Shown here piece by piece: positions 4,935-25,113 of a stretch of 32,000 nt of DNA. Positions within the stretch are counted from its first letter, which is position 1. Every line of letters begins with the position of its first letter. The DNA is from Candidatus Saccharimonadota bacterium (lineage in GTDB: Bacteria > Patescibacteriota > Saccharimonadia > Saccharimonadales > UBA4665), in NCBI GenBank assembly GCA_003516025.1, contig CP023991.1, positions 240,001 through 272,000 of the forward strand, read 5' to 3'. The position numbers and the translations under genes were made by a program. Under the pieces are notes generated by a model that was given only the letters and a program-made list of their open reading frames with translations, ran no database searches and was not told the origin of the DNA.

Positions 4935-4951
4935 ACAGGTCAAATCGTTAC
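4935..4951. repeat. Cassette 1 distal arm (ACAGGTCAAATCGTTAC), followed by a G7 tract at 4963-4969
   Basis: 15/17 complementary to 7252-7268. The surrounding ~45 nt are homologous (as reverse complement) to 25076-25113 of cassette 2. Confidence 0.75.
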
Positions 4952-5168
4952 AAATCATAAATGGGGGGGTAGGTAGGCAGCGGACGAGAAAGGGAGAATA
5001 AGGAGGAGTTAGGTAATTCAAAGATGAATTAAATCTCGCATACCTATGGTATCTCTATAAACCTATCTGGTCCGCTGCGCTGTACTAACTGTACGAATAC
5101 TTACGACTGCACCGGCAGACATTGATTACGTGTAAGTAATCGCCTGGGATGCTAGCTACTGCTACTAC

Positions 5169-5191
5169 TGTCAAGGACAATTGTCCTGACA
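5169..5191. repeat. 23-nt near-perfect palindrome TGTCAAGGACAATTGTCCTGACA
   Basis: The core AGGACAATTGTCCT is a perfect 14-nt palindrome and the flanks extend it with one mismatch. It is operator-like, with unknown function. Confidence 0.5.
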
Positions 5192-5195
5192 TGCG

Positions 5196-5308
5196 CTTCA
5201 TCGGGATACCCCGAGCATTTGAGCAAACCTTGTCCACCATGCCGCTTTGTAGGCGACTGGGTATGGTGGGAGCGGCGAGCTCTCTTGCATCGGGGTATCC
5301 CGATGAAG
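5196..5308. repeat. Perfect 19-bp inverted repeat (CTTCATCGGGATACCCCGA at 5196-5214 / TCGGGGTATCCCGATGAAG at 5290-5308) with a 75-nt loop
   Basis: Read directly from the sequence. The loop contains further complementary pairs (CCACCAT/ATGGTGG and GCCGCT/AGCGGC). Confidence 0.8.
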
Positions 5309-5626
5309 AGGCTCCGTCCGCTGGTATGCGGGGTGACGGGTGCGCATGGGTGCCTTGGTAGGGCATCCGTTTACCAACATTATCCGACACGCTCGCACGC
5401 GCTGGTTGTGCCTGTAAGTTTGTGGTACAAGCCTACGTCAGATCACCGGAGTGATAACGTTTCTTGTACAGATGCCAGGTTATGGAAGACCGGCGTCTAG
5501 GTTCAGGCACATACGCGCGCAGCTGCATCGGACGATGCTAGCGGTGCTTCAGTCTGTCGACCTCAGTCAAACGGCGAATTGTAGCTGCCGAGTGATTGCC
5601 GTGAAGGCGAGAGGTTGAACAGAACT

Positions 5627-6949
5627 TCAGCAGAGGGTGATGCCGTGGTCCGCCATGTACGCCTCGGGGTCGATGTGACCACCGAAGAACGACGTACCGA
5701 CGCCAAAGTGCAGGTGCGGGCCCGTCGACTGACCACGGTTGCCCGTGTAGGCGATGAGGTCACCGGCGTTGACGTAGGTGTCGAGACCCACGTTGACGCT
5801 GTCCACGTGGCCGTACTCGGTGTACATGCCGTCGTCACCCAGGATGACCACCGCGAGGCCGAAGCCGTTGGTAGCACCTGCGCGCTTGACGTATCCGCTG
5901 GTGGCGGCGTACACCGGGTTGCCGATGGGCAGAGCCATGTCCACGCCACCGTGCTGCGTTCCCCAGCGGGGACCGAAGCCAGACGTGCAGCGGTAGCTGC
6001 TGTCGTGGAGTGGGTTCACCCAGCCGTTGTTGACCACCGGAGCGGTGCTGGCAGCGACCTCGAGGGCCGGAGCAGCGGCGGGAGTCTCCGCGGGCGTGGG
6101 CTCGGGAGCCGGCGCGGGCGGTGCGACCTGCACGGAAGTTCCGGGCAGCTTGATCACGTCGCCGGCGTAGATGACGTCGGGGTCGGTGATCTTGTCGGGG
6201 TTGAGGTTGACGATGTCAGCCACCTTGTTGGTGTCCTGGTAGGCCGCCGAAGCGATCCTGTTCAGGGTGTCACCAGACAAGATGGAGTAGTCGGTCGACT
6301 CGACGTCGGCGACGACCGGTGCGGGAGCCGGGGTGGGCTCAGGCACGGTTGCCTCGACGACGGGCTCGGGAGCCGGGGTGGGCTCAGGAGCGACAGAAGC
6401 CGCGAGGGCGACATCAGACGGAGCCTCCACCGGGACGGTGGTGACGCCAGGCTGGATGCCACCGCGGCACTGCCAGGCCTTGAGGCCCTGACCCTTGACT
6501 CCATTCCAGCCGGACACGACGCGCTCGGCGACGATGACCTGCTGGACAGGCGTGGCCTTGTCGGCGCGGGGAGCGAACTCGCCGCCTCCGTACATGAGCC
6601 AGGTGCTGGTGAGGAACTGCAGGCCACCGAAGTGGAGACCGGCCGGGTCGGCGACGTGCCAACGGAAGTCGGACTCGCAGTCGACAACGCCGGTCCAGTC
6701 GTGCTCACCGACCGTCGTGGTCTCCTCTGCCATAGCAGTGGAGGGGTGTACGAACAGGGCGGCGATGCTGATCAGGCAGGCGAACAGCGTAGCGCGGATG
6801 GCGCTGGTGCGGTTCAGCTGCAGCTCGGGCAGGCGCGGACGGAAATCCACGACGGTCTGGCCGATCAGGACGGTGTTGTGCGCGAAGAAGTACATGACTT
6901 CTCGGCTGGGGTGCTCACTTGCGCGGTGTTGCGATGACATGATTGTCAT
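5627..6949 (-). CDS. Secreted peptidoglycan hydrolase: Rpf-like transglycosylase domain + LysM + M23 (LytM) peptidase; high-GC, actinobacterial type
   Basis: Rpf-type motif DWTGVVDCESDFRWHV...GGLQFLTSTW; Pro/Ala/Glu/Thr linkers; LysM YSILSGDTLNRIASAAY...IYAGDVIKLP; M23 motifs HGGVDMA and GPHLHFGV. The AAGGAG Shine-Dalgarno (complement of 6951-6956) is better spaced for the ATG at 6940, so the start is uncertain. Confidence 0.85.
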   Translation of the reverse strand: MTIMSSQHRASEHPSREVMYFFAHNTVLIGQTVVDFRPRLPELQLNRTSAIRATLFACLISIAALFVHPSTAMAEETTTVGEHDWTGVVDCESDFRWHVADPAGLHFGGLQFLTSTWLMYGGGEFAPRADKATPVQQVIVAERVVSGWNGVKGQGLKAWQCRGGIQPGVTTVPVEAPSDVALAASVAPEPTPAPEPVVEATVPEPTPAPAPVVADVESTDYSILSGDTLNRIASAAYQDTNKVADIVNLNPDKITDPDVIYAGDVIKLPGTSVQVAPPAPAPEPTPAETPAAAPALEVAASTAPVVNNGWVNPLHDSSYRCTSGFGPRWGTQHGGVDMALPIGNPVYAATSGYVKRAGATNGFGLAVVILGDDGMYTEYGHVDSVNVGLDTYVNAGDLIAYTGNRGQSTGPHLHFGVGTSFFGGHIDPEAYMADHGITLC

Positions 6950-7047
6950 GCTCCTTGCGGGTAGGGTACTGATGGGCGTGGATGGTAGAGCGGCTCAAGC
7001 GTAATCACCAATTGTGTCGGTGAAGAGCTGAGGATGTAGCGTAGCCA

Positions 7048-7115
7048 TTCCTGGTAAGGAGGGCATCAGAATAGACTTGCCGGAAATCTACTCAAACGCC
7101 CTCCCTATACAGGAA
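7048..7115 (-). promoter_or_regulatory. Cassette 1 conserved TAGGGAG hairpin upstream of the cargo gene
   Basis: On the minus strand, TTCCTGTATAGGGAGGGC pairs with GCCCTCCTTACCAGGAA. It is positionally and sequence-homologous to hairpin 22262-22327 of cassette 2. Confidence 0.5.
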
Positions 7116-7145
7116 GGGTAAGTATTCATAACCTGCGTCCGGAGG

Positions 7146-7178
7146 CCAAAAAGAGGCCTACAACAGAGTGCAGGCCTT
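7146..7178 (-). terminator. Weak intrinsic terminator ending the cassette 1 leader RNA
   Basis: Minus strand reads GAAGGCCTGCACTCTGTTGTAGGCCTCTTTTTGG: a 6-bp AGGCCT stem, a 12-nt loop and T5. Confidence 0.4.
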
Positions 7179-7251
7179 CAGGTATGCTAAAGGGCTGAAA
7201 AGAGTGATACGAGAAGGTCTGCACTCAGTACCGGTCACAGTATTATGAACA

Positions 7252-7268
7252 GTAATGAATTGACCTGT
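7252..7268. repeat. Cassette 1 proximal arm (minus-strand reading ACAGGTCAATTCATTAC)
   Basis: 15/17 complementary to 4935-4951, 2.3 kb away. Homologous to arm 22043-22059 of cassette 2. Confidence 0.75.
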
Positions 7269-7384
7269 TAATGATCGTTCTGCGTACAATAACCATTGAT
7301 ACACGAGTTCGATGCGGGGAGTAAGTAATATGCTTGCTGGACGCAAAGAGCAGGGAACCTGGCTCCATACACAAATACTATTGT

Positions 7385-7413
7385 ATAGTACTATATTATA
7401 GTTAAATTGTCAA
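7385..7413 (-). promoter_or_regulatory. Sigma70-type promoter of cassette 1 (TTGACA-N17-TACTAT)
   Basis: Minus strand reads CTATTGACAATTTAACTATAATATAGTACTAT, homologous to the cassette 2 promoter TTATTGACATTTTAGCTATTTTGTGGTAGTAT. Confidence 0.55.
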
Positions 7414-7480
7414 TAGTATGAGATATTTACGTGATCTATATCACTGATTAACATCACTTATTTGTCTAAATACAGGAATA

Positions 7481-7909
7481 TTAGGCGCTTTGCAGGGCGG
7501 TTGAATTAGTAATATTTGTTACAAGACCGGAAATAGCCATTTCGCCATTCGCATGTTTGCCGGTAATTTTGCCACGGTCTAAAAACACCTTGTAACTGCC
7601 ATCGGTAGCACGGATCCTGTACTGCACGTCATACATATCGGCCTTGCCGGTAATCAAATCGGTCATAGCCTGCATACAATGGTCGTAGTCATCAGAGTGA
7701 ACAAGATCCGTAAATGATTTATAGTGGACAAACTTACCAGCGTCTTTATCGCTATATCCCAGCATGCGAATTTTATTAAGCCCAAAAAATATTGTGCCAG
7801 AAGGCAACTCCATAAGCCACCAGGCCATATCAGCGGCTTCAATAGCATCTTCCAGGAGGCTGAATTCTTGGCCGGTTCCATAAAAACTCATATATATGTA
7901 CAGTAACAA
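7481..7909 (-). CDS. Stand-alone PAS domain protein
   Basis: 142-aa ORF with a PAS_3-like pattern: MAWWLMELPSG...LGYSDKD...VHSDDYD...YDVQYRIRATDGSYKVFLDRGKI. Confidence 0.65.
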   Translation of the reverse strand: MLLYIYMSFYGTGQEFSLLEDAIEAADMAWWLMELPSGTIFFGLNKIRMLGYSDKDAGKFVHYKSFTDLVHSDDYDHCMQAMTDLITGKADMYDVQYRIRATDGSYKVFLDRGKITGKHANGEMAISGLVTNITNSTALQSA

Positions 7910-7945
7910 GGTTTACAGACTAAACCAAATCCTTATTGCAATTTT

Positions 7946-9124
7946 CTAAAAATGGATAAATACCAGGTCGCCAGGGAAAATGCGGGCCGTACTGTAACGT
8001 CCGTTCCAGTTGGAGTTATACTGCGAAATATTGATTGAGCCATCACTGTTTACTGAATCGACGTACATGACATGGCCGTAGGTGCCAGTGTTGCGGACAG
8101 CCACATCGCCGGCGCGTGGGTTGCCATCTACTGGAATGCCGTCGGCCCGGGCGTTGTCGTCCCATTGTTTGGCGTTACCGAAACCGCCCCAGTATGGCAT
8201 ATGTCGGCCAGAAGCACTGACAGCCCAGGCAGTATATGATACGCATTGGCGTTGATACATGCCCCATGGGTCGGGAATGTCATTAGGCCACGGAGCATTG
8301 GCGTAGGGGTAATTCGCGCCATTAATAGCGTTGACCCCGGCCGGGGCAGCTAGTTTGGTGGTTGGGCCACTGGCAGCAGCCTGCTGGCGAAGGAAGGCGG
8401 CGTTTTCGGCAGCCTGCTGTTTTTGGAGTTGAGAGATCTGTGAATTATTAGCTGCGATCGTGGCGCTGTACTGGGCTTGCTGCGACTGATTCATGGCGAG
8501 CAGCTCATCAAGTTGGGATTTTTGGCTGGCCGTCTGTGACTGCATCGTTTTATTGTCTTCCAGTAATTGGTCAACTTGATCTTTCTGCTTTTGCTCTTGA
8601 GCCTTAAGGCTATTGATGCGATCCAGGCCCTCTTTTACGCTTGCTTGAGCCGAGATGGTGTATTGTTCGCGGTCGACATATTCGCTGAGATTCTTACTTG
8701 AGGCCATCATCTCGAGCATGCTCATATCGTTTTCTATGTATAATTTGCGAACGCTCTGCGCTAAGATATGCTGCTGCTCGGCAATTTTGGCCTGTGTCTC
8801 GGCAATTTTTTGACTAATACGGGCTTGCTCAGCCTGGTTTACGCTTATTTGCGTACTTAAATTCGAAAGTGTCCTCTGTAGGGAACTTATCTGACCTTCT
8901 AGTGTAGTGGCGGTTGTTTGTAAGTCTGTCTTCGTGGACTGATTAGCGGCATTCTGGTTTTGGAGGTTTTTGATTTGGGTATTGTAGTCTACCGCTGCGG
9001 CGGTCGAGGTGACGGAAGTCGCTGCTATGGTCGCTACCGCTAGCAGTAGTGATACTGTTTTTACGTTTATATTTTTCTTAGTACAAAAACGCGCGTAAGA
9101 AAGAAAACCCATGACCCCCCTCAA
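7946..9124 (-). CDS. PcsB-like secreted peptidoglycan hydrolase (coiled coil + C-terminal CHAP domain)
   Basis: Signal/TM segment, about 200 aa of Gln-rich heptad-like coiled coil, then CHAP motifs QCVSYTAWAV (Cys) and GHVMYVDSV (His). Confidence 0.8.
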   Translation of the reverse strand: MRGVMGFLSYARFCTKKNINVKTVSLLLAVATIAATSVTSTAAAVDYNTQIKNLQNQNAANQSTKTDLQTTATTLEGQISSLQRTLSNLSTQISVNQAEQARISQKIAETQAKIAEQQHILAQSVRKLYIENDMSMLEMMASSKNLSEYVDREQYTISAQASVKEGLDRINSLKAQEQKQKDQVDQLLEDNKTMQSQTASQKSQLDELLAMNQSQQAQYSATIAANNSQISQLQKQQAAENAAFLRQQAAASGPTTKLAAPAGVNAINGANYPYANAPWPNDIPDPWGMYQRQCVSYTAWAVSASGRHMPYWGGFGNAKQWDDNARADGIPVDGNPRAGDVAVRNTGTYGHVMYVDSVNSDGSINISQYNSNWNGRYSTARIFPGDLVFIHF

Positions 9125-9225
9125 GTTACCTACACACTATAGCAACCATAAACATATACAACAAGTTATTATTTTAGTCAAAATGCTTATGCTAGATATA
9201 TAGTTCAACGGCTTAAGTACAGGGG

Positions 9226-9621
9226 TCATTCAAATGTATGGCGCACTAATTCCAGCAGCTGCCGCGGCGATAAGTCGGCCTTCACGGCACTACTGTAGGC
9301 GCCGAGACGCAGAGCTTCCGTTAACATGTCTCCCGATGACAGATTGCTGAGGACGATCACTTTAGTGTCGCTGGTATTATGGAATTTTTTCAAAAAACCT
9401 ATGCCGTCAATTTGCGGCATCATAAGATCGAGTAAAATGAGGTCAAAGTGTGACGCCTTTGTTTGGTCAAGCGCCTCCTGGCCGTTCGCGGCGATAGTAA
9501 CCTCATATGGTCCTGTGGACAGGATGATGTGATAGGTCGCGCGTAGCACTTCCTCGTCTTCGACTATAAGTATGGTGTGCATTGGTGTTTTACTTATCTC
9601 CGTATGGTAAACCGCCACCAT
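9226..9621 (-). CDS. Stand-alone response-regulator receiver (CheY-like) protein
   Basis: ILIVEDEE...DLILLDLMMPQIDG...KVIVLSN...K pattern with no output domain. The likely start is the internal MHTILIVEDE (about 9582). Confidence 0.85.
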   Translation of the reverse strand: MVAVYHTEISKTPMHTILIVEDEEVLRATYHIILSTGPYEVTIAANGQEALDQTKASHFDLILLDLMMPQIDGIGFLKKFHNTSDTKVIVLSNLSSGDMLTEALRLGAYSSAVKADLSPRQLLELVRHTFE

Positions 9622-9663
9622 AGTGAAATAATGTGAAAATTCTTACTTGTTAACCATGTGCGG

Positions 9664-10398
9664 CTACAGTTGGGCTTTCGCGAATACCACCAGATTATTG
9701 GAATAGTGCCGTGTCACGTAGTCAAACGTGCCATCACAGGTGATGAGCCGGAGTCCCGGATAATCGAGGTTTCCGTATACTTCCTGTGTTGGAAAATTGT
9801 GCTGGTCATAGCTGGCGGATTTTTCAACAGTGAAGTTGACGGCGCTGCCATCTTGGCGGTTTACCGTTATAGTATCGCCGGTTTTTACGTCTCGCAATGA
9901 CCAAAAAACGGCCTCGCCGTATATACTGCTGTCCAAATGGCCGTCAATGATAGCCGGACCGACTTCACCGGGTGTAGGCGCGCCAGTGTACCAACCGGCC
10001 TTGTCGTGCTCAGGGACTTCCAGGGCGCCATTTTCATCAAGCCCCACACCAACCAGGTTGGCATCTAGGTTGATGGCTGGGATTTGCAACCGTGTTGGCT
10101 CCGAGCGTTGTAGCCCGGCAGGCTTAACGACCGCCGGAGTAACGGGCAGAGGAGGCTGTTGGGTAGTTGAACTGGTTGGTGAATGCCGCGCCTCAACTAA
10201 GGACGCCGTAAGTTGCGCCGAGCCGGCAATAGTGATTATAAAAAGTAAAACCGTCAGGCTGTATGAAACAATTTTCTGAGTGGGCCATGAAGATAGTTCA
10301 CTCTTCAGCTGTTGCAAGGCGAATGCGTGACGCAAAGGAGTAATAAATCGCAGTTTCTCCAGATCATGAGGCTTGAGTATGTCGGTGGTATGGGGCAT
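9664..10398 (-). CDS. Class F sortase
   Basis: N-terminal TM anchor, TRLQIPAINLDANLVGVGLD, AGWYTGAPTPGEVGPAIIDGHLD (catalytic His) and LRLITCDG (catalytic Cys). Confidence 0.8.
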   Translation of the reverse strand: MPHTTDILKPHDLEKLRFITPLRHAFALQQLKSELSSWPTQKIVSYSLTVLLFIITIAGSAQLTASLVEARHSPTSSTTQQPPLPVTPAVVKPAGLQRSEPTRLQIPAINLDANLVGVGLDENGALEVPEHDKAGWYTGAPTPGEVGPAIIDGHLDSSIYGEAVFWSLRDVKTGDTITVNRQDGSAVNFTVEKSASYDQHNFPTQEVYGNLDYPGLRLITCDGTFDYVTRHYSNNLVVFAKAQL

Positions 10399-10463
10399 AT
10401 GGTTTCCTGTAGCTAAGTGGAGCGGCCGCTAGGCAGCCGCTCCAGACAAACACTTGCCGCTGG

Positions 10464-11057: not shown

Positions 11058-11414
11058 AAGACCCTCCTATGGTTTGTATGTACTCCTATTTCAGTCGCAC
11101 GCGCACGAAGTGTCTGTTAAATATTAGACCGAGCTTCAAACCACCACAGTTAATAACCTAGGCTTTATTGCTGCCGAGGCAGAATAAGCGGTCATAAGAC
11201 AGAGCTTTAATCTTATAGGGGGACGATCCAACTTGTTCAATACCCCAGCCATAGTACAGGGTCGTCCCGGGGGTATCGTTGCAGCGGCTGGCAGGGCTTA
11301 TTTTGCTGACATTATCTGCTCGTTTCAAGACTTTGTATGCGGCTAGCGCGTCAGAGCAGGCTAACTTTTTGGCGTTGAGGTGGCTGAGGGATATTTTTCT
11401 GTATGAGCTCCTGT

Positions 11415-11702: not shown

Positions 11703-11703
11703 A

Positions 11704-12066: not shown

Positions 12067-12074
12067 AATGTGAT

Positions 12075-12099
12075 TATAACAAAAGTGACCTCGTTATAA
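12075..12099. repeat. 25-nt repeat TATAACAAAAGTGACCTCGTTATAA (copy of 13713-13737 with 2 mismatches)
   Basis: Direct comparison of the two intergenic regions. On the minus strand it supplies a TGTTATAAT extended -10 directly before the ATG at 12066. Confidence 0.8.
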
Positions 12100-12135
12100 T
12101 GGGGCCTAGATACAGAAGTATATGTAATGACAGTA

Positions 12136-12146
12136 TTGGAGGGCCA
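12136..12146. repeat. TTGGAGGGCCA: copy of the tRNA-Lys 3' end (att-like)
   Basis: The identical 11-mer recurs at 12874-12884. A 10-mer match to 13777-13786 covers the CCA end plus acceptor stem of tRNA-Lys. Confidence 0.7.
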
Positions 12147-12171
12147 CAGTGGAACTTGTCAGGACAAAACT

Positions 12172-13703: not shown

Positions 13704-13715
13704 AGGGCTTACTAT

Positions 13716-13746
13716 AACAAAAGCGACTTCGTTATAACGAAGTCGC
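13716..13746 (-). terminator. Intrinsic terminator downstream of tRNA-Lys
   Basis: Perfect 9-bp palindrome GCGACTTCG-TTATAA-CGAAGTCGC (13723-13746), followed on the minus strand by TTTTGTT. Confidence 0.6.
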
Positions 13747-13776
13747 TAGATAAGAAAATAGATTTTATAACGGAAC

Positions 13777-13853
13777 TGGAGGGCCAGGAGGGACTCGAAC
13801 CCTCGACACCCTGCTTAAGAGGCAGGTGCTCTAACCGGCTGAGCTACTGGCCC
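13777..13853 (-). tRNA. tRNA-Lys (anticodon CUU)
   Basis: Minus strand reads GGGCCAGTAGCTCAGCCGGTTAGAGCACCTGCCTCTTAAGCAGGGTGTCGAGGGTTCGAGTCCCTCCTGGCCCTCCA. It has a cloverleaf, the anticodon loop CTCTTAA, a GTTCGAG T-loop and an encoded CCA. Confidence 0.9.
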
Positions 13854-18197: not shown

Positions 18198-18227
18198 CAA
18201 GCTGCTCATTAAAGTAATATTCGTATT

Positions 18228-18923: not shown

Positions 18924-18953
18924 ACATAAAGCTTATGCTATAATAGTAGTTAT

Positions 18954-19679
18954 ATGACAGAACATATTACGCACGATACCGATCCATTCGCCGATTTACC
19001 CCGGGAATTACTGCACAGTCCCGATGGTGTTTCGGTTGTTGTCGGCCGAGAAGTAACGCAGTCGGATAAGGATATTCTGTGGCCTACCATACAAGCCGGT
19101 TTTATTGATCTCAACCGTAAGTCGTACGAGAAGCAGGACATGACGCTAGAAGAGTTTGAGGCTGACATGGAATCACCTCATGTTCTAAAATACATAGCTC
19201 GCGACGAAGCCGATGCGCCGATAGGCATACTGACCGTGCATGTCGGCCTGGAGGATATTTCCTGGACCAATACCGCACCTTTGCAGGAAGTGCAGGATCA
19301 AGTCGATCCTACTGCTACGCCATATTACATCGGGACTGTGGTAGTCCCTCCCGACTTGCGTGGGACATCTACGGCCACGCGCCTGTTGCAGGGAGCGTAT
19401 TTACACTTTCAATCCGTAAATGAAGCTCAGGATAAACATTCGTTGGCGTTTTTTGATTGTGCTGAGGCGAATTACCCATGGCTGGGCCAGTTCGCCGAAG
19501 CAGTAGCCCATAAAAATGACGAATTCGCTGGCGTGCCGGCTACAGTTAATGAACTGTATGTTGACGCGTGGGTGCAGGGAGCTGATAGCGCGGTTAAAGT
19601 CCGAGAGAGCCAGGAAACGGCTTCTGATACTATTCTTGACCGCCAGCATTACTACGCCGTAGCCATTGATAAATCCTAA
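18954..19679 (+). CDS. Hypothetical protein, possibly GNAT-like acetyltransferase
   Basis: 241-aa ORF. YYIGTVVVPPDLRGTSTATRLLQGAY loosely resembles GNAT motif A. Confidence 0.3.
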   Translation: MTEHITHDTDPFADLPRELLHSPDGVSVVVGREVTQSDKDILWPTIQAGFIDLNRKSYEKQDMTLEEFEADMESPHVLKYIARDEADAPIGILTVHVGLEDISWTNTAPLQEVQDQVDPTATPYYIGTVVVPPDLRGTSTATRLLQGAYLHFQSVNEAQDKHSLAFFDCAEANYPWLGQFAEAVAHKNDEFAGVPATVNELYVDAWVQGADSAVKVRESQETASDTILDRQHYYAVAIDKS

Positions 19680-19710
19680 TAGATAAGCATAGCCGTGTTA
19701 CCATTAAGAC

Positions 19711-21900
19711 ATGCTTCAGGTCGCGCTTGTTGTAACGGCAATATGTACGCTATTTTTTGGCGTTACCGTTTTCCTCAATAACCCCAGATCACTCATTTAT
19801 AAGCTGTATCTTATATTCAGCATATCAAGTGCTTTGTGGATGGTTGTTAACGCGGTGGTAATGAGCCGGCCGGCTCAGATAAGCCCGCATGGTTTATTGG
19901 TTTTCTCGCAGTTCATTACGCCACTGGCCCTGCTTACGTCGTATATGTTTTACGTGTTCCTTCGACTGCATAACAATGATAAAGGGTTGCGTTCAATCTC
20001 GGTGCTCACGGCGATACCGACACTGTTCGTTAGCGCTTTTTCGTTTTCCCATTTCAATGTGTACCTCGACAAATACACGCAACCGACTCTCGGCATTCTG
20101 TACCCACTGTATCTGGGCGCGCTATTGTTTAACGTCGTCATGGTGTTCATCACGCTCTATAGGCCTGAATTCGTGCCTTCGCCCGGCGACAGGGCACGGC
20201 ACCAGCAGGCACGGTATTTAAAGCTGGGCGCGTTTACGTCCATCGTTCCGGCTGTTGGCATAGGGGCCATCGTGCCGTTGTTCACGGATAATGAAATCAG
20301 CAATCTCGGGCCGCTGTTTTCGGTGTTTTTCATCCTTTTTTCCGGAATTGCCATGGTACGCCATAAGCTATTTGATATACGTTTTTTCGCCGTCCGCGCG
20401 GCTGCCTATGTCACCACGATGACGATGTTGGCGATTGTCTACATCAGCCCGATTATTTTTCTGCTCGACACCTTTCTTTTAAGGGTGCCGTTTACATGGG
20501 GACGTTTTTTGCCCGAAGTCTTGCTAACCACAGTAGCCGCGTTAAGCTATGACTGGATTAAAGCCCATTTTAATGCCTTCACCCGGCGCATATTTTATAG
20601 GGACGCCTACGACCCGGCCGTGTTACTGGGGCAGTTTAACCGCCAGCTGGTATCGACTACCGACCTGGCGAAGATGTTGGAAGATAGTGCTCATTTGATC
20701 GCCAGTAACCTCAAGGCGGAGTACTGCGTTTTTATTATTAAGTCAGGCGACGTCTCGCAGATCCGTCAGTTTGGTACGACGGAAAAGATGTTCAAATTGG
20801 CTGCAATGCGAAAAGTGTGGTCGGCCTGGATGCATACCGAAAGTAATGTCATTGGTGTGGATGTCGATAACCCTACGTCAGTAAGTGTGCATGACATTTT
20901 AAACGAGCACAATGTTCCGTTACTGGTCCGGCTGTCAAGTGATAATAGCCCGGAGTCGAGTTTTGGCTGTATTCTGCTCGGTTACAAAATCAACGGCGAT
21001 CCGTACAGCGGCCAGGATATAGAAACGCTGGAGACGATTGCCGACGCGTCGGTCATCGCAATTCAGAACGCGCTTCGTTTTGAGGAAATCCAGAAGTTTA
21101 ATGTAACCCTGCAGCAGCGGATTGATGACGCTACCCGCAAACTGCGCCATACCAACGCCAAGCTGAAAATCCTTGATGAAACCAAGGACGACTTCATCTC
21201 CATGGCCTCCCATCAGCTGCGTACGCCCCTTACCAGCGTTAAGGGATATTTGAGCATGGTGCTCGACGGTGATGCTGGAAAACTGACCTCCATGCAGCGT
21301 AAAATGCTTGACCAGGCTTTCGTGAGCAGCCAGCGCATGGTGTTCCTGATAGCCGACCTGTTAAATGTTTCCCGGCTGAAAACCGGTAAATTTGTCATTG
21401 AATCCGGAGTAGTCAACCTGTCGCAAACGGTCAATGACGAGGTCAAACAGTTGAAGGAAACGGCCAAAAACCGCTCACTGGAACTGCAGTACGAAAAACC
21501 TGAACAATTCCCAGATTTATATCTGGACGACACAAAAATCCGGCAAGTTATCATGAACTTCATTGATAATGCAATTTACTACACCAAGCCAGGTGGTTTT
21601 ATACGTATTGAACTGATTGATAAGCCTGCTGCTGTTGAGTTTAAGGTCCATGATAACGGTATCGGCGTACCGACCAGTGAACAACCGCATCTTTTTACGA
21701 AGTTTTACCGTGCTGGCAACGCCCGTCGTACGAGGCCGGACGGCACCGGTCTAGGCTTATTCATGGCAAAAAAGGTAGTCGTAGCCCAGGGTGGAGCGGT
21801 CATTTTTGACAGTAAAGAAGGCAAGGGTAGTACTTTCGGCTTCATGCTTCCGAAAGACAAAGTTTCAATACCTGGAAAAGCTAAGTTATTAAGCTCATGA
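19711..21900 (+). CDS. Multi-TM sensor histidine kinase
   Basis: About 8 N-terminal TM helices, a central cytoplasmic domain, the HisKA box FISMASHQLRTPLTS and HATPase_c boxes (NFIDNAIYYT, HDNGIGV, GTGLGLFMAK). Confidence 0.85.
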   Translation: MLQVALVVTAICTLFFGVTVFLNNPRSLIYKLYLIFSISSALWMVVNAVVMSRPAQISPHGLLVFSQFITPLALLTSYMFYVFLRLHNNDKGLRSISVLTAIPTLFVSAFSFSHFNVYLDKYTQPTLGILYPLYLGALLFNVVMVFITLYRPEFVPSPGDRARHQQARYLKLGAFTSIVPAVGIGAIVPLFTDNEISNLGPLFSVFFILFSGIAMVRHKLFDIRFFAVRAAAYVTTMTMLAIVYISPIIFLLDTFLLRVPFTWGRFLPEVLLTTVAALSYDWIKAHFNAFTRRIFYRDAYDPAVLLGQFNRQLVSTTDLAKMLEDSAHLIASNLKAEYCVFIIKSGDVSQIRQFGTTEKMFKLAAMRKVWSAWMHTESNVIGVDVDNPTSVSVHDILNEHNVPLLVRLSSDNSPESSFGCILLGYKINGDPYSGQDIETLETIADASVIAIQNALRFEEIQKFNVTLQQRIDDATRKLRHTNAKLKILDETKDDFISMASHQLRTPLTSVKGYLSMVLDGDAGKLTSMQRKMLDQAFVSSQRMVFLIADLLNVSRLKTGKFVIESGVVNLSQTVNDEVKQLKETAKNRSLELQYEKPEQFPDLYLDDTKIRQVIMNFIDNAIYYTKPGGFIRIELIDKPAAVEFKVHDNGIGVPTSEQPHLFTKFYRAGNARRTRPDGTGLGLFMAKKVVVAQGGAVIFDSKEGKGSTFGFMLPKDKVSIPGKAKLLSS

Positions 21901-21903
21901 TTA

Positions 21904-21932
21904 TTGACATTTTAGCTATTTTGTGGTAGTAT
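21904..21932 (+). promoter_or_regulatory. Sigma70-type promoter of cassette 2 (TTGACA-N17-TAGTAT with an upstream TGg)
   Basis: TTGACA at 21904-21909, an exact 17-nt spacer and TAGTAT at 21927-21932. It starts 4 nt after the kinase stop codon. Confidence 0.6.
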
Positions 21933-22042
21933 GTGTACATCCTGATGAGTGGGTAGACAGAGGACGTCAATTATGATGAAAAACTGTTGCTGTCTAAGTG
22001 CTTCGGTACGTTAGGTGGGCCATTTCGACAGGGGTAATTTAA

Positions 22043-22059
22043 CAAGTCGAATCATTACA
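22043..22059. repeat. Cassette 2 proximal arm CAAGTCGAATCATTACA
   Basis: 17/17 complementary to 25097-25113, 3.0 kb downstream. Similarity continues imperfectly for about 10 more nt. Confidence 0.85.
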
Positions 22060-22133
22060 GTGCATTGATACGTACATGTATCAAATAACTGCAAGGGACG
22101 ACAGACGAAACCAGGGCAGGCTTTTATATGCAA

Positions 22134-22160
22134 CACACCGCGGAAGTGGTGTGGTTTTTT
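22134..22160 (+). terminator. Intrinsic terminator (CACACCGC-GGAA-GTGGTGTG + GTTTTTT)
   Basis: 8-bp stem including one G:U pair, a GGAA tetraloop and T6. Confidence 0.65.
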
Positions 22161-22261
22161 GCGTGTAAGAGCCTGCACTGGTTGAGTGTAAGTTTGAGTT
22201 TCGGCTCCTTACTTCCCGTGCAGATAATCTACGCACTACAACCATACTTTGCTTTTACTGT

Positions 22262-22327
22262 CCCATTGTAGGGAGTGGCTTGCTTGAGAAAACATTGTTG
22301 TCTCCAGCCAGTCACTCCCTACAGGGG
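22262..22327 (+). promoter_or_regulatory. Cassette 2 conserved TAGGGAG hairpin upstream of the cargo genes
   Basis: TGTAGGGAGTG (22267-22277) pairs with CACTCCCTACA (22313-22323), flanked by CCC/GGG. Homologous to 7048-7115. Confidence 0.5.
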
Positions 22328-22397
22328 ATTCAGTGATCTATGCTTTGGCAATCCCGCCACTGTATAGCCCAACGTCCCCTTTTTGGAGGGAACACCC

Positions 22398-22970
22398 GTG
22401 CCAACCCCCGAAGCATCTCTGGCTAAGGCTGAGCGACTCGAACGAGAGGCCGCGCAAGCCCGCCAGCGTGCCGCCGACTTGGCTGCTGCCCAAGAGCTCC
22501 GTCACAAGAAGGAGCAGGCGGAAGAGCAGTTCAGGGACGACGAGCACCGTTTCAACGACAAGGTCAACCGTCTCGTCAAGATCAGCTTCCCCCGCGAGGG
22601 CAAGAGGCCTGACCTGGCGAACTACGACAAGGACCGCGTCGGCCAGATCGAGCAAGTCATCGACGAGATCCTGGCACTATGGGAACCCCCGCAGCCTGCC
22701 CCGGCAGCGCAGCCCGATCCCGTGCCAACCCCCGCGCCTGACCCCGCAGCGGTCCTGCAGCCCGATCCCGATCCGGCCGCAGTTCCGCAGCCCGACCCCC
22801 AGGTCGTTCCCGACCCGGACCCCAACGGTCAGCCGACCGCCGCCATCCCGCAGGCCCAGCCCGCTGCTCCGCAGTCCGGTTCTGGTGCCGTACGAAGGCC
22901 CCCGGCCGCTGGCCACGGATTCCGCCGTCTACTCGACAAGGCAGGAAGCGCCTTCACCGGCCAATCCTGA
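22398..22970 (+). CDS. High-GC hypothetical protein: charged coiled-coil N-terminus plus Pro/Asp/Ala/Gln-rich repeats
   Basis: Frame of track ORF 22383-22970. I prefer the GTG at 22398, which has GGAGGG 7 nt upstream. Codons are GC3-rich. No domain recognised. Confidence 0.55.
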   Translation: MPTPEASLAKAERLEREAAQARQRAADLAAAQELRHKKEQAEEQFRDDEHRFNDKVNRLVKISFPREGKRPDLANYDKDRVGQIEQVIDEILALWEPPQPAPAAQPDPVPTPAPDPAAVLQPDPDPAAVPQPDPQVVPDPDPNGQPTAAIPQAQPAAPQSGSGAVRRPPAAGHGFRRLLDKAGSAFTGQS

Positions 22971-23006
22971 TCCTTTCCTCCCCATACTGGAAAGAAGGTC
23001 CTCGCG

Positions 23007-24851
23007 ATGTCTTACTGGCTCGCTTTCGTCATCATCGTGGCCATCACGGCTGCGGTGTGGATGTACGCCAACGCTCGTTCCTACCGACGGACCCACCGGT
23101 TCGTCATGACGCGTAACCGCCTCGGACTCGCCTTGTGCGGCTTCCTGGTGGTCTACCTGCTGACCCAGCTCCTCTGGAGTCCGCTGAGCGGCTTCCGAGT
23201 CGTCAACAACCGCGGCAACCACTGGTTCACCAACCCGTGGAGCCCGTTCTGGCCTTCGGAGTCCTTCATGGGACGTGTGGTCTTCGTGGTGATCGTCGTG
23301 ATCCTGGTCTTCGCGACCGCGGTCATCGCCTTCGCCCTCCGAAGCAACGCCCGTTCCCGCGGCATCGCGCTCTGCGTGATCGTCCTGGTCGTGCTGGTCC
23401 TGGCCCTGATCTTCTCCCCCGCCTTCAAGCGGTGGATGTGGATCGCTCTGGCCATCGGCCTGCTCGCCTGGCTGCTGCCGGTTGGCATCCACTCCAAGTG
23501 GACCGCCAAGTTGCAGGCCGTCGTGGTGCTGCTGGTGGGGCTGTTCCTCCTCGTTCCTGCCATCTGGGCCATCGACTACATGGACGTCACTGCGGTGAGT
23601 CACATGTCAGCGGCCGCTGATGACAACGGGGATGCGGAGAAGCCGTCGTTCACGTGCGCCGACAAGGGTGACCTGTCCCTCGACTGTGAGGTGTCAGACA
23701 CCGGACTCGGCAACGACGTCACCACCCACTGGGAGGTGACCGACAAGGAGGGCAACGAGGTCATCGCGCAGGCCGACCTGGACAAGCTGGAGCACACGCT
23801 CAAGCCCAACCTGAAGGTCGGCACGGCCGGTGACTTCACGGTGACCTTCTGGGCGACCAAGGGTGACGAGCAGACCGACAAGGTCTCGCACGACTACCCC
23901 GTCGCTCAGCCGGCAGCTGCCTGTGCCAACGGCTTCATCGTGAAGCAGCCTGGCCGTGAGGACTACAACCTCAACGACCAGGGTGCGGCGATCCGTGGTG
24001 CAGGCAGTGAGGAGGCGTTCCGTCAGCAGATCATCACCCAAGCGGCCGAAGACCCGCTGACGCTGTACGTCTACTACATCAACTCGCCGGCACAGAAGAC
24101 CGACCCGCTGCCCCTCAAGACGGAGCAGGACACCAACCCGGCCACCATCCTCGTCGAGGGCGGTGACATCAAGGACGGTGCCTGCTACTCCCAGAGGGCC
24201 GTCGACGCCTACAACATGTGGCTCCCGCTGTGGAAGGTCGCCGACCTCACCCACCAGGAGAGTGTCACCCACCAGGGTGCCAACTACGGCATCGAGAATG
24301 GTCAGCTCGTCCAGGATGATGGTGTCAACGTCCCCAACGAAGAGGGTGTCGACATCGCCTACCGTGACGCCAACGGCAACATCGTCGGTGAGCACTCGGC
24401 GCTCTACGTCTGCACCCAGCCGACCACCGGCGAAGCCACTCCCGGCGTCCCGCAGGGTCACACCAACAACCAGGAGGTTGAACAGCACGACGTTCCTACC
24501 GGAGACACCCCTGAGGAGGACACGCCCGACCAGGACACCCCCGACCAGGACACCCCCGAGGAGGACACGCCCGACACCGGCAAGCACGCCAGCCAGGCCC
24601 CGGTCAGTTCCGCCCCCGTCGCAACCGACCCTCGGGTCAACCCCAACGCGGGCGGCAACGGAACGCGGCCTTCGTCGTCTTCTTCGGCTCGTCCGACGCA
24701 GGCGCCGCAGCCCCAGCCCACCATGAGCGAGACACCTTCCGAGGTGCAGCAGCCCGTGCCGGCTGGTCCCGTAGCAACTTCCACGGCTGTCGCCACGGGA
24801 GATCCTGCTGCGGGTGGCGGTGACAGTGATGGGGACGGTATCCCGGACTGA
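23007..24851 (+). CDS. High-GC hypothetical membrane protein (about 6 N-terminal TM helices plus a large extracytoplasmic domain and acidic/Pro-rich tail)
   Basis: 614-aa ORF with GC3-rich codons and GGAAAGAAGG upstream. The TM block spans residues ~1-190, followed by a Cys-containing soluble region, DTPxx repeats and a Pro/Ser/Ala-rich C-terminus. No domain recognised. Confidence 0.7.
   Translation: MSYWLAFVIIVAITAAVWMYANARSYRRTHRFVMTRNRLGLALCGFLVVYLLTQLLWSPLSGFRVVNNRGNHWFTNPWSPFWPSESFMGRVVFVVIVVILVFATAVIAFALRSNARSRGIALCVIVLVVLVLALIFSPAFKRWMWIALAIGLLAWLLPVGIHSKWTAKLQAVVVLLVGLFLLVPAIWAIDYMDVTAVSHMSAAADDNGDAEKPSFTCADKGDLSLDCEVSDTGLGNDVTTHWEVTDKEGNEVIAQADLDKLEHTLKPNLKVGTAGDFTVTFWATKGDEQTDKVSHDYPVAQPAAACANGFIVKQPGREDYNLNDQGAAIRGAGSEEAFRQQIITQAAEDPLTLYVYYINSPAQKTDPLPLKTEQDTNPATILVEGGDIKDGACYSQRAVDAYNMWLPLWKVADLTHQESVTHQGANYGIENGQLVQDDGVNVPNEEGVDIAYRDANGNIVGEHSALYVCTQPTTGEATPGVPQGHTNNQEVEQHDVPTGDTPEEDTPDQDTPDQDTPEEDTPDTGKHASQAPVSSAPVATDPRVNPNAGGNGTRPSSSSSARPTQAPQPQPTMSETPSEVQQPVPAGPVATSTAVATGDPAAGGGDSDGDGIPD
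24504..24578 (+). repeat. Five tandem 15-nt repeats encoding DTP(E/D)(E/Q/T)
   Basis: GACACCCCTGAGGAG GACACGCCCGACCAG GACACCCCCGACCAG GACACCCCCGAGGAG GACACGCCCGACACC. Confidence 0.9.
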
Positions 24852-24867
24852 TCACTGTCTGTGACAC

Positions 24868-24943
24868 CCAGGGTTCCCCGGGACACGCACTTCGCTCACG
24901 CGAGGCGCATGGTAGCTTCGGCTGCTTGTCCCGGGGACCCTGG
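24868..24943 (+). terminator. GC-rich 17-bp hairpin at the end of island 2 (terminator-like, no U tract)
   Basis: CCAGGGTTCCCCGGGACA (24868-24885) pairs with TGTCCCGGGGACCCTGG (24927-24943). G+C drops immediately afterwards. Confidence 0.45.
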
Positions 24944-25096
24944 TTCCACAAATGTAATTGCAAAAAAGTATGACGTGTAGATGCGTTTTGTAGGGTGGTT
25001 GTAAGACTAAAAGTTGAAGTGTTGTTGGCCTTCGCCGACTCCATTCCTTTTATGAAATAACAACCGCCCTGCAATTACCCCCCCATTAATGTGTAT

Positions 25097-25113
25097 TGTA
25101 ATGATTCGACTTG
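25097..25113. repeat. Cassette 2 distal arm TGTAATGATTCGACTTG, preceded by a C7 tract at 25078-25084
   Basis: Perfect complement of 22043-22059. The stretch 25076-25113 is homologous to the reverse complement of 4935-4972. Confidence 0.85.

Follow-up and report, generated by a model that had tools for sequence, protein, structure and literature searches.

Two gene cassettes in a Saccharibacteria genome share a non-coding frame that may pair the two ends of their transcripts

The ~1-Mb genome of the Saccharibacteria (TM7) host contains cargo cassettes built on one common non-coding frame (n=2), both within the window, the whole 32,000-nt stretch of DNA that was analyzed (Table 1). The frame consists of a promoter, a terminator-bearing leader and two nested stretches that base-pair across a cargo of 2-3 kb. 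Cargo 1 has a GC content of 0.67 (GC3 0.84) and cargo 2 of 0.65-0.68; cargo GC3 is 0.84-0.85 versus 0.47-0.62 in host genes, and the scaffold is AT-richer and host-like relative to the GC-rich cargo. By composition, the cargo appears foreign; it is actinobacteria-like and encodes a peptidoglycan hydrolase and a membrane protein.

Table 1. Features of the two cassettes, with positions in the window
Feature	Position	Strand	Remark
Cassette 1	7415-4935	-	
Promoter-like site, TTGACA-17-TACTAT	7385..7415	-	aligns with cassette 2 promoter and L015 7697-7730
Leader, ~235 nt	7145..7380	-	inferred start to end of terminator U-run
Proximal arm, LR1 5' strand, ACAGGTCAATTCATTACTGTTCATAA	7243..7268	-	
r2, GTACTGAGTGCAGACCTTC	7213..7231	-	pairs with proximal arm or with r3
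r3, GAAGGCCTGCACTC, holding GCCTGCACT box, and terminator-like hairpin with U-run	7145..7179	-	
LR2 5' strand, UAUGAAUACUUAC	7118..7130	-	10 bp recovered in full-length MFE fold
Long hairpin H2 (…UAUAGGGAGGGC … GCCCUCCUUACCAGG)	7050..7113	-	between terminator and start codon; read from sequence
Cargo 1, transglycosylase-like (Rpf-type) + LysM + peptidase M23 protein	5627..6949	-	called start 6940
3' UTR, two GC-rich hairpins, 19-nt perfect inverted repeat	5196..5308	-	75 nt apart
LR2 3' strand, GUAAGUAUUCGUA	5092..5104	-	boundary of high-GC cargo and AT-richer scaffold
C7 box (4960-4971) and distal arm, LR1 3' strand (4935-4960)	4935..4971	-	
Cassette 2	21902-25113	+	
Promoter-like site, TTGACA-17-TAGTAT with TG	21904..21932	+	consensus prediction
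Leader, ~225 nt	21938..22163	+	through terminator U-run
Proximal arm, LR1 5' strand	22043..22065	+	
r2 (22109-22126) : r3 (22166-22183), holding GCCTGCACT	22109..22183	+	-25.5 kcal/mol
LR2 5' strand	22198..22259	+	includes CUUAC at 22208
Hairpin H2, 28-nt arms, 86% complementary	22267..22323	+	inverted-repeat search
Cargo 2, 190-aa Pro-rich protein (22398-22970) and 614-aa multi-pass membrane protein (23007-24851)	22398..24851	+	
LR2 3' strand	24953..25020	+	begins where GC falls from 0.63 to 0.35
C7 box (25076-25087) and distal arm, LR1 3' strand (25091-25113)	25076..25113	+	
blastn match, promoter	7422-7385 vs 21894-21932		
blastn match, proximal arm	7271-7245 vs 22039-22065		
blastn match, 3' end	4971-4936 vs 25076-25113		

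In cargo-sense orientation, blastn aligns cassettes 1 and 2 colinearly at three places only, and the promoter, arm and C7 motifs each occur exactly twice in the window, where none or ~0.35 would be expected for the long motifs. These colinear matches and two-copy motifs bear out the proposal of an earlier note on this DNA that the two scaffolds are paralogs. All of the sequences quoted there are present where it placed them, and homology between the two cassettes does end directly after the distal arm. In cassette 1, 12 nt separate the end of the distal arm from the stop codon of BrkB, a convergent gene, and the promoter of cassette 2 starts 5 nt past the histidine-kinase stop codon. An orthologous cassette 1 lies at the same locus in another Saccharibacterium, L015 (CHAP … cassette … convergent BrkB, Rhomboid), and L022 keeps the cassette 2 promoter behind the orthologous kinase gene. 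The ortholog in L015 narrows two of the note's observations: the C7 box, present in cassettes 1 and 2, is not supported as a general feature, since L015 has TACCCTAATC instead, and the sensory gene described beside the cassettes does not hold for cassette 1 in L015, where an ABC permease lies upstream. Rfam matched no rRNA or other family at the cassettes, and genome, metagenome and viral scans retrieved no further cassette copies.

Both cassettes have predicted sigma-70-like promoters at homologous leader positions; promoters, start sites (near 7380 in cassette 1) and terminators are consensus predictions only. Each leader has, besides this promoter, a conserved internal helix, an intrinsic terminator and a long hairpin, and the intrinsic-terminator-like hairpins are at homologous positions. 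Two elements reported earlier as shared were found in both cassettes, the GCCTGCACT box (7175-7167 on the minus strand and 22171-22179) and the AGGGAG hairpin (7050-7113 and 22267-22323); L015 carries a hairpin equivalent to H2. The internal helix, r2:r3, is kept in all three cassettes. Its duplex energy is -20.5 kcal/mol in cassette 1, where a U-A pair corresponds to a compensatory C-G in L015, and in cassette 2 it has 17/18 bp, with the hairpin of the terminator (22134-22163) inside it. The leader block around the proximal arm (7288-7202) is 85% identical to L015 7844-7928, and the flanking coding DNA is 66-70% identical, with proteins 57-70% identical. The arm-containing block is thus more conserved than the adjoining coding DNA. 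L015 also keeps the hairpin element of the cassette 1 3' UTR (5340-5275, 87% identical to L015 9877-9941).

The arms form the outer helix, LR1. An inverted-repeat search found the cassette 1 arms (4935-4960 / 7243-7268) to be 81% complementary over 26 nt and the cassette 2 arms (22043-22064 / 25092-25113) to be 91% complementary over 22 nt, with a perfect 17-nt core. LR1 of cassette 2 has 23 continuous pairs (-34.6 kcal/mol), and the 17-nt core in cassette 1 has two unpaired positions, T.T and A.C; the perfect run shared by the cassette 1 arms is only 9 nt. For a leader of ~460 nt and a trailer of ~700 nt, chance would give a perfect inverted 17-mer match ~2e-5 times. By duplex energy alone the arms are no outliers, since ordinary gene flanks in the window reach -25 to -38 kcal/mol (best 30x30 duplex); what makes them significant is the length of the exact match, the homologous position and the covariation. 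The two compensatory changes described earlier are real: the arms differ by two double-sided changes, at arm positions 3 and 7 (columns 4 and 8 of our LR1 alignment). Across the three cassettes (cassette 1, L015 and cassette 2), column 8 is A:U, U:A and G:C, and four pairs are altered on both sides. In this alignment 85.9% of cells are paired, versus 27-42% when the partner is slid. Depending on which measure is used, 21-91 of 500 shuffled alignments reached the observed values, a marginal result because there are only three sequences, two of them orthologs. Within this genome, cognate 5' and 3' arms pair at -24.7 and -34.6 kcal/mol versus -18.2 and -20.1 kcal/mol for cross-cassette pairs. Matched recombination sites in DNA would likewise give compensatory changes in inverted repeats.

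A second long-range helix, LR2, is nested within the first and brackets the cargo in all three cassettes. In cassette 1, UAUGAAUACUUAC pairs with GUAAGUAUUCGUA, and in L015, UGAUUACUAC pairs with GUAGUAAUCA; the two differ by one A-U to U-A swap and a matched one-pair deletion, changes that fall within an otherwise poorly conserved 3' region. LR2 of cassette 2 is an imperfect duplex of ~47 predicted pairs at the homologous place (-42.1 kcal/mol, z = -4.2), and none of 500 shuffles was as good; the z-scores are modest in cassette 1 (-2.6) and L015 (-2.5). Cognate strands in this genome again pair better (-37.2 and -42.1 kcal/mol) than cross-cassette strands (-20.9 and -25.4 kcal/mol). Full-length MFE folds of the three transcripts, which are unreliable for RNAs of 2.5-3 kb, each recovered LR1 and LR2 independently. 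The sense strand forms 154 bp with 14 G.U versus 133 bp with 8 G.U for the antisense strand, a weak bias, and LR1 in cassette 1 and L015 favors the antisense strand. The third pair type that L015 adds at one arm column, the compensatory changes in LR2 and the extra conservation of the leader block strengthen the earlier argument that the complementarity itself is under selection.

The most likely reading, to which we give about an even chance, is that the frame is an RNA clamp that holds both ends of a transcript together. Whether the complementarity acts as RNA or as DNA had been left open; the evidence now leans toward RNA, in the cargo-sense transcript, and the DNA readings are weakened. 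This leaning rests on the predicted promoter and terminator, the conserved leader helices, the nesting and the weak sense-strand excess of G.U. Complementarity, nesting, conservation, compensatory changes and promoter and terminator motifs are observed at the cassettes. From these we infer transcription, RNA pairing in vivo, the involvement of a nuclease and a regulatory outcome.

We postulate that each cassette is one transcription unit in the Saccharibacteria chromosome. A strong sigma-70-type promoter would produce a ~230-nt structured leader with the proximal arm, the r2:r3 helix and an intrinsic terminator, and read-through would add H2, the high-GC, actinobacteria-like cargo and the 3' UTR. 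There is no promoter-like site between terminator and cargo in either cassette, and thus the cargo mRNA should hold both arms in cis. The position of the intrinsic terminator, past the proximal arm but before the cargo, means that a large share of transcripts may never hold both. LR1 and LR2, the latter just outside H2 and the cargo, would close the cargo into a loop of 2.3-3 kb, a panhandle. The clamp would control the fate of the mRNA (processing, stability or control); it could also shield the ends from RNases or keep the message folded in an inactive form. The proximal arm of the cassette 1 lineage could pair with r2 instead, which would free r3 to form the terminator, so that occupancy of the arm could set read-through in an attenuator-like manner. 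In predicted folds of cassette 1, the terminated leader forms 1:2 plus 3:4 and the full-length RNA forms LR1 plus 2:3. The attenuator geometry fails in cassette 2, where r1:r2 is weak (-5.3 kcal/mol) and r3 does not overlap the terminator.

It is possible, but unlikely, that the RNA acts in trans. The leader would then be a stand-alone sRNA of ~230 nt, put at ~220 nt in the earlier note, whose arm region binds the distal arm within the 3' UTR of the cargo, or a 3' UTR fragment would pair with the nascent leader and free r2 for an r2:r3 antiterminator, so that read-through feeds back positively. A strong predicted promoter and an intrinsic terminator on either side of the arm fit an sRNA gene, the cassette 1 folds fit a switch in which a sequestered arm gives 2:3, in L015 the local partner r2 (GTAATGAGTGCAGACCT) looks similar to the distal arm (GTAATGAG-CAGACCTG), and cross-cassette arms match worse than cognate ones. 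However, with both arms on the cargo mRNA, pairing in cis would outcompete pairing in trans. LR2 is 3' of the terminator, outside a short sRNA, yet it covaries too, and the weak r1:r2 and separate terminator of cassette 2 do not suit the switch.

Invertible DNA segments or transposon ends are less likely than an RNA clamp. We consider it quite improbable that the arms are sites for a site-specific recombinase, with inversion uncoupling the cargo from an external promoter (phase variation). Each cargo does lie between inverted repeats, the promoter being external to the proximal one, and the need for identical crossover regions would make compensatory arm changes expected. A large serine recombinase gene (27250-28800) lies 2.1 kb from cassette 2, and some metagenome contigs stop near arms, at 25124, 7283 and 21943. 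These contig ends, however, miss the branch points calculated for inversion in a 31-mer graph, and three contigs from two other datasets cross the arms in the reference orientation only; between them they cover the two proximal arms and, for cassette 2, the distal arm as well. Among contigs carrying cargo proteins, no inverted junction was retrieved. The recombinase adjoins a tRNA-Glu gene and resembles an integrase belonging to a separate element, and the 12-kb L015 contig had no recombinase call. On inspection of their sequence, the arms show none of the internal dyad symmetry that recombinase core sites have, and the cassette 1 arms share only the 9-nt perfect run. Inversion would also leave the nested LR2 and the conserved leader helices unexplained.

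We regard it as equally improbable that the arms mark the ends of a non-autonomous mobile element that carries genes, whether of mobile-insertion-cassette or foldback type, or of its decayed relic, with the arms and LR2 as remnants of long terminal inverted repeats. Two copies with unrelated cargo in one genome, patchy, nested, inverted complementarity over ~200 nt at each end, the end of homology at the distal arm and the foreign composition of the cargo would fit such an element. But homology among the three cassettes extends beyond the proximal arm for ~130-150 nt on its upstream side, taking in leader and promoter, and therefore the arm is not an element terminus. Genomes with 57-70% protein identity carry cassette 1 at one and the same locus, so that it has been immobile for a long time, and a dead element would not hold complementarity through double-sided changes. 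We found no flanking direct repeats or target-site duplications on reading the sequence; the scans without further copies and the host-like scaffold around GC-rich cargo also argue against mobility. Least probable is that the long-range pairing has no selected function and persists by chance, in duplicated regulatory regions made up of promoter, leader and 3' end, from an ancestral local hairpin split by cargo: the local partner r2 resembles the distal arm, ordinary gene flanks give strong chance duplexes and only three sequences are available, but this would not account for three different Watson-Crick pairs at one arm column, the matched substitution and deletion between orthologs in LR2 in a poorly conserved region, the perfect AT-rich helix of 17-23 bp retained in cassette 2, or an arm block more conserved than coding DNA.

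The cassettes resemble several known systems in part. Like invertible switches (hin/gin, fimS and Bacteroides invertible promoters), they have short inverted repeats flanking a segment; in those switches, the orientation of the segment relative to an inside or outside promoter decides expression, the repeats are sites for a dedicated recombinase and both orientations occur in populations; neither such a recombinase nor a second orientation was found for the cassettes. Mobile insertion cassettes and integron cassettes are likewise promoter-dependent modules of one or a few genes with conserved non-coding boundaries and variable cargo. However, in the former, terminal inverted repeats mark the actual ends and target duplications are present, and the latter have a local attC palindrome and need an integrase, none of which we see here.

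An RNA clamp that joins the ends of a message is rare in bacterial mRNAs and has not been described for the Saccharibacteria phylum. In rRNA processing stalks, the flanks of a 1.5-3 kb RNA pair in the precursor and covary, and the duplex, of at least ~20 bp, is a substrate for RNase III. The cassettes share the long-range pairing of flanking sequences but enclose protein-coding RNA. In the hok family, fbi 5'-3' pairing closes the message for a potentially harmful protein, and phylogenetic covariation supports the pairing. The hok mRNAs are ~400 nt, paired at the very 5' end and accompanied by antisense Sok RNA, whereas no antisense gene or toxin family was seen at the cassettes. Pairing of 5' and 3' UTRs within one mRNA is known for icaR of S. 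aureus (PMC3868564) and hbs of B. subtilis, where the contact is 14 bp (PMC5737220). The duplex modulates the action of a nuclease, RNase III in icaR (PMC3868564) and RNase Y in hbs (PMC5737220), and the icaR helix covers the Shine-Dalgarno region (PMC3868564). The cassette helices are of comparable length (13-23 bp). The start codon lies ~330 and ~170 nt downstream of them, so that, unlike in icaR, they leave the cargo ribosome-binding site uncovered. Whereas icaR and hbs have single helices across 0.4-1 kb in native genes, the cassettes have two nested helices across 2.3-3 kb, a duplicated frame, foreign-looking genes and a terminator-containing leader.

All three cassettes that we compared, the two in the window and an ortholog of cassette 1 on a separate contig (L015), have two long-range helices, each predicted to join the 5' untranslated region to the 3' untranslated region of a single putative transcription unit. 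The outer helix (LR1) joins a proximal arm in the leader to a distal arm at the 3' end, and the second (LR2) is nested within it. We give an even chance to the explanation that these helices act in the RNA as a clamp joining the ends of the transcript. The earlier note had described cassettes 1 and 2 as paralogs with matching arms, and this description of the sequence was borne out: an inverted-repeat search recovered both arm pairs. A blastn comparison with cassette 1 reverse-complemented gave colinear similarity at three places only: promoter, proximal arm, and 3' end. Motifs for the promoter, the arm, and the C7 box (which adjoins the distal arm) each occur exactly twice in the 32 kb.

The best homolog of the cassette 1 cargo protein, P0125, lies on L015, a 12-kb contig from JGI 3300053229. 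The gene order of L015 is the same as that of the window (response regulator, CHAP protein, cassette, convergent BrkB, Rhomboid), and the host proteins of the two genomes share 57-70% identity. The whole frame is present in L015: promoter, leader, U-run terminator, AGGGAG hairpin, GCCTGCACT box, and both arms (proximal, ACAGGTCTATTCATTACAGTCCAT; distal, ATGTCCTGTAATGAGCAGACCTGT), together with paired GC-rich hairpins in the 3' UTR. Over a block of 87 nt around the proximal arm, cassette 1 and L015 are 85% identical, and over a block of the 3' UTR they are 87% identical, whereas the flanking coding DNA is only 66-70% identical. This difference argues that the non-coding parts are under purifying selection, and the conservation of the blocks at this locus indicates that the cassette has been inherited there for a long time.

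Two features to which the earlier note had drawn attention are incidental. The C7 box is not kept in L015, and the adjacency of cassette 1 to a sensory gene is not general, because the gene upstream of the cassette in L015 encodes an ABC permease and not the PAS protein. Read antisense, both C7 boxes are ATG GGG GGG TA(G/A), a Met-Gly-Gly-stop mini-ORF with a G7 homopolymer; lacking conservation in L015, this mini-ORF too is probably incidental. We also rejected an icaR-like anti-Shine-Dalgarno role for the box, again because L015 does not conserve it.

The case for LR1 rests on the exact length of the match, its homologous position, and compensatory change, and not on energy. The arms are the top interaction between leader and 3' UTR in cassette 2 (-34.6 kcal/mol) and L015 (-30.9 kcal/mol), but the flanks of ordinary genes in the window, taken as a control, form chance 30x30 duplexes of -25 to -38 kcal/mol. 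We therefore dropped any claim of significance for the arms from energy alone. Duplex prediction for the whole leader against the whole trailer was uninformative, since everything pairs. LR1 has 23 continuous pairs in cassette 2 and is interrupted in L015 (24 pairs) and cassette 1 (21 pairs). In an alignment of the arms from these three sequences, 85.9% of cells are paired, compared to 27-42% when the partner strand is slid, and four pairs are altered on both sides. For example, three different pairs occupy column 8: A-U (cassette 1), U-A (L015), and G-C (cassette 2). Depending on the measure, 21 to 91 of 500 shuffles do as well as the real alignment, a marginal outcome with n=3 sequences. Within the window's genome, cognate 5' and 3' modules pair better than cross-cassette combinations.

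Scanning the leaders against the 3' UTRs identified LR2 just inside LR1. In L015 the segments homologous to LR2 of cassette 1 are UGAUUACUAC and GUAGUAAUCA. Two differences separate the 5' strands of cassette 1 and L015, an A-to-U substitution and one missing U. Both are matched on the 3' strand, by a U-to-A substitution and one missing A. The 3' sequence around LR2 is poorly conserved between the two. The LR2 duplex of cassette 2 has the same CUUAC:GUAAG core and a predicted energy of -42.1 kcal/mol, and none of 500 shuffles was as good. At the 3' edge of cargo 2, GC content drops from 0.63 to 0.35 exactly where the 3' strand of LR2 begins, and the 5' strand is directly upstream of H2, a long hairpin between the terminator and the start of the cargo. 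Thus, LR1 and LR2 are nested around H2 plus the cargo. Independent minimum free energy folds of the full-length transcripts recovered both helices in 3/3. The 3' module, which separates LR2 from the distal arm, is rich in pyrimidines and poor in G (C 0.29-0.34, G 0.14-0.18). A ACCUAACUCCUCCUU block in this module is conserved in cassette 1 and L015 and resembles either a Rho-loading (rut) site or an anti-Shine-Dalgarno sequence.

Positions of the cassette parts and of neighboring features (window coordinates unless a contig is named)
Feature	Position	Strand	Details
Cassette 1	7415-4935	minus	
Cassette 2	21902-25113	plus	
Arm pair I4 (cassette 1)	4935-4960 / 7243-7268		26 nt, 81% complementary
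Arm pair I9 (cassette 2)	22043-22064 / 25092-25113		22 nt, 91% complementary, 17-nt perfect core
LR2, cassette 1	7130-7118 / 5104-5092		UAUGAAUACUUAC with GUAAGUAUUCGUA
LR2, cassette 2	22198-22259 / 24953-25020		imperfect duplex, ~47 predicted pairs
C7 boxes	4960-4971; 25076-25087		
3' modules	4972-5030; 25021-25075; L015 10180-10246		
Cargo 1	5627-6949		Transglycosylase-LysM-M23
Cargo 1 ortholog	L015 8221-9696		LysM-Transglycosylase-M23
Cargo 2, Pro-rich protein gene	22398-22970		
Overlap of contigs L002 and L004	21884-21943		exactly 60 nt
Direct repeat	12075-12146; 13713-13786		~72 nt, ~80% identical
tRNA-Lys	13777-13853	minus	
Region of the putative integrative element	27216-32000		
tRNA-Glu	27216-27290		
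Large serine recombinase gene	27250-28800	minus	Resolvase + Recombinase + Zn_ribbon_recom
SRA-HNH protein gene	29160-30044		
Non-coding unit near tRNA-Glu, with kinase gene	L021 10578-10990		

Consensus predictions place in both leaders of the window a near-consensus sigma-70-like promoter and, ~225-235 nt downstream, an intrinsic-terminator-like hairpin, which sits between the proximal arm and the cargo. A leader that acts in trans as an sRNA is one alternative to the clamp, and we think it unlikely. In all three leaders, two regions (r2 and r3) form a helix of 14-18 bp (-20.5 to -25.5 kcal/mol); the GCCTGCACT box is located within r3, and the helix carries a compensatory U-A to C-G change between cassette 1 and L015. 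In cassette 1 and L015, the proximal arm is an alternative partner for r2, and the terminator stem shares sequence with r3. Consequently, the terminated cassette 1 leader is predicted to fold as arm:r2 plus terminator (helices 1:2 and 3:4), whereas the full-length RNA is predicted to fold as LR1 plus r2:r3. The mutually exclusive helices of an attenuator (1:2, 2:3, and 3:4, the last being the intrinsic terminator) are found in cassette 1 and partly in L015. The geometry fails in cassette 2, in which arm:r2 (1:2) has only -5.3 kcal/mol and the terminator lies within the 2:3 loop. It is possible, from these modeled folds, that occupancy of the arm affects terminator read-through in the cassette 1 lineage.

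The promoter and terminator, the conserved local helices on the same strand, the nested long-range helices, and a bias in G.U pairs all lean toward an RNA in the cargo sense, and not DNA, as the paired molecule. The G.U bias is weak (154 bp with 14 G.U on the sense strand vs 133 bp with 8 G.U on the antisense strand), and for LR1 the antisense strand was favored in two of the three cassettes (cassette 1 and L015). If the cassettes were instead invertible DNA segments, inverted repeats would be expected to flank them, and these are present (I4 and I9); a gene for a large serine recombinase also lies 2.1 kb away from cassette 2. However, the strain of the window also occurs, at 100% identity, in JGI 3300004213 and in Logan SRR6241621, and contigs of that strain from other datasets (L003, L004, and L011) span the arms only in the orientation of the reference, although assembled contigs may miss minority forms. 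Furthermore, the arms have no internal dyad symmetry, the recombinase gene abuts tRNA-Glu like the integrase gene of a separate element, and gene calls gave no such recombinase in the vicinity of cassette 1 or on L015. We consider inversion quite improbable.

We hold it just as improbable that the arms are the ends of a mobile element, such as a non-autonomous transposon or mobile insertion cassette. The proximal arm is not the terminus of an element, since homology extends past it on the upstream side and takes in the leader and promoter. There are no flanking direct repeats or target duplications at the cassettes or in L015, and the locus is stable, with cassette 1 syntenic in L015. Scans of sequence collections gave no further copies. 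A C7-plus-arm pattern had one chance match among genome contigs, in a coding region of a Syntrophaceae MAG, and a looser pattern had six chance matches among metagenome contigs, none with a partner arm (both collections are without the window's genome); two scans of viral collections for family members gave no match. That the long-range pairing has no selected function seems to us slightly less probable still. Several known architectures were rejected: an integron gene cassette (no local partner near the distal arm and no integrase-type tyrosine recombinase in the window), a hammerhead (CUGAUGAG is present at the start of the cassette 2 RNA but is not conserved in L022, from a third organism, and there is no Rfam match), a group II intron (no domain V, no Rfam hit), and a retron (no reverse transcriptase gene among the ORFs scanned). 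Rfam 15 gave only two tRNAs at the gathering threshold and nothing relevant at E<=5 in either cassette.

The serine recombinase gene overlaps the 3' end of tRNA-Glu, and the lower-GC DNA that follows encodes an SRA-HNH protein. This region resembles an integrative element with its insertion site at tRNA-Glu; a second copy of the tRNA-Glu 3' end was not found within the window. JGI contig L004 ends inside this tRNA, at 27275. On contig L021, from a more distant Saccharibacterium, the DNA after the kinase gene holds a consensus promoter, a short non-coding unit that ends in a terminator, and then tRNA-Glu. The two extra copies of the tRNA 3' end (ATTCTCCGTGAGGTCACCA) after the tRNA resemble footprints left at this same tRNA by integrative elements. 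Elsewhere in the window, a direct repeat ends in TGGAGGGCCA, the reverse complement of the tRNA-Lys 3' end, and the 1.64-kb segment between its copies holds a Peptidase_S51 gene and a 263-aa ORF. On its sequence, we read this repeat as an att-like duplication of the tRNA-Lys 3' end around a small island.

Part of cassette 2 is also present in a third organism. In L022 (kinase 60% identical), the stop codon of the kinase gene is directly followed by the promoter known from cassette 2 and the opening ~25 nt of its leader, and the contig breaks off 65 nt into the leader. Kinase-syntenic loci of more distant Saccharibacteria (L012, L014, and L021) have no cassette, high-GC island, or motifs. The best homologs of the histidine kinase next to cassette 2 are in genomes of Candidatus Saccharibacteria / Saccharimonadales, with identity of no more than 54-60%, which places the window on a Saccharibacteria (TM7, CPR) chromosome. 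A close homolog of the Saccharibacteria kinase, P0013, is deposited in a 'Marmoricola sp.' MAG (Actinobacteria), probably through a binning error driven by co-abundance, which, if so, would hint at the host genus of the lineage. Like L022, which ends within the orthologous leader, two JGI contigs of the window strain (L002 and L004) break at the cassette 2 promoter, where they overlap. These breaks hint at strain-level heterogeneity or a repeat at the junction.

The cargo differs from its surroundings in GC content (63-70% vs about 48%) and in GC3 (0.84-0.85 vs 0.47-0.62 for host genes of the window); the L015 cargo is also high in GC (GC3 of 0.72 vs 0.60-0.66 for L015 host genes). Cargo 1 encodes a transglycosylase-like (Rpf-type), LysM, and peptidase M23 protein that is related to endolysin domains and has actinobacterial homologs. 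A further homolog, P0128, was set aside: it has no scaffold and is in a run of small co-oriented genes without Pfam hits, possibly a mobile element or phage. Cargo 2 encodes a Pro-rich protein and a 614-aa membrane protein. A word-index search found no homologs of cargo 2, and a full scan found about 50 distant ones, rich in Gly, Ala, Arg, and Pro, a bias as in high-GC organisms; there were no phage or plasmid matches. The cargo 1 proteins of the window and L015 differ in the order of their N-terminal domains, and only the M23 part aligns well (58% identity). To judge from these alignments, the cargo was rearranged while the non-coding frame stayed put.

Saccharibacteria are epibionts on Actinobacteria. 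We speculate, with considerable doubt, that the promoter, terminator-gated leader, and two-helix clamp could be a dedicated, duplicable non-coding chassis for genes from the actinobacterial host, one that domesticates and tightly controls host-attack genes (a peptidoglycan hydrolase and a surface or membrane protein, for instance), and that the cargo between LR2 and the 3' module could be open to exchange or to repeated renewal from host DNA. The orthologous hydrolases, with their swapped domain order, fit this picture. The GC3 of cargo 1 is host-like in both lineages (0.84 in the window, 0.72 in L015), although their proteins have diverged to 57-70% identity. That codon usage has stayed host-like in a cassette passed on vertically poses a separate puzzle, one of gene flow from host to epibiont.

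To our knowledge, almost nothing is known of gene regulation in Saccharibacteria (CPR), and RNA regulation in the phylum is unexplored. If the clamp is real, these transcripts would be among very few bacterial mRNAs with conserved, covarying pairing of the 5' and 3' ends, the first with end pairing over kilobase distances by two nested helices, and the first cis-regulatory RNA architecture proposed for this group. The clamp would also frame the genes likeliest to act on the actinobacterial host, those for a peptidoglycan hydrolase and a high-GC membrane protein, and thus may show how epibionts control weapons able to damage their own wall.

With its two helices, the clamp would hold the cargo in a closed loop. 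Its probable role, to judge from icaR (PMC3868564), hbs (PMC5737220), and rRNA processing stalks as analogs, would be to set processing, stability, or translatability of the transcript. As in the intramolecular pairing of 5' and 3' UTRs in icaR and hbs, the complementary stretches here are in the 5' and 3' UTRs of one predicted unit. The pairing in icaR covers the Shine-Dalgarno sequence, whereas LR1 and LR2 are ~330 nt and ~170 nt upstream of the cargo start codons and leave the Shine-Dalgarno sequence uncovered. In the stalks from which RNase III processes rRNA, a long-range duplex of ~20 bp flanks the enclosed RNA; the same arrangement is found here, with cleavage by RNase III being putative.
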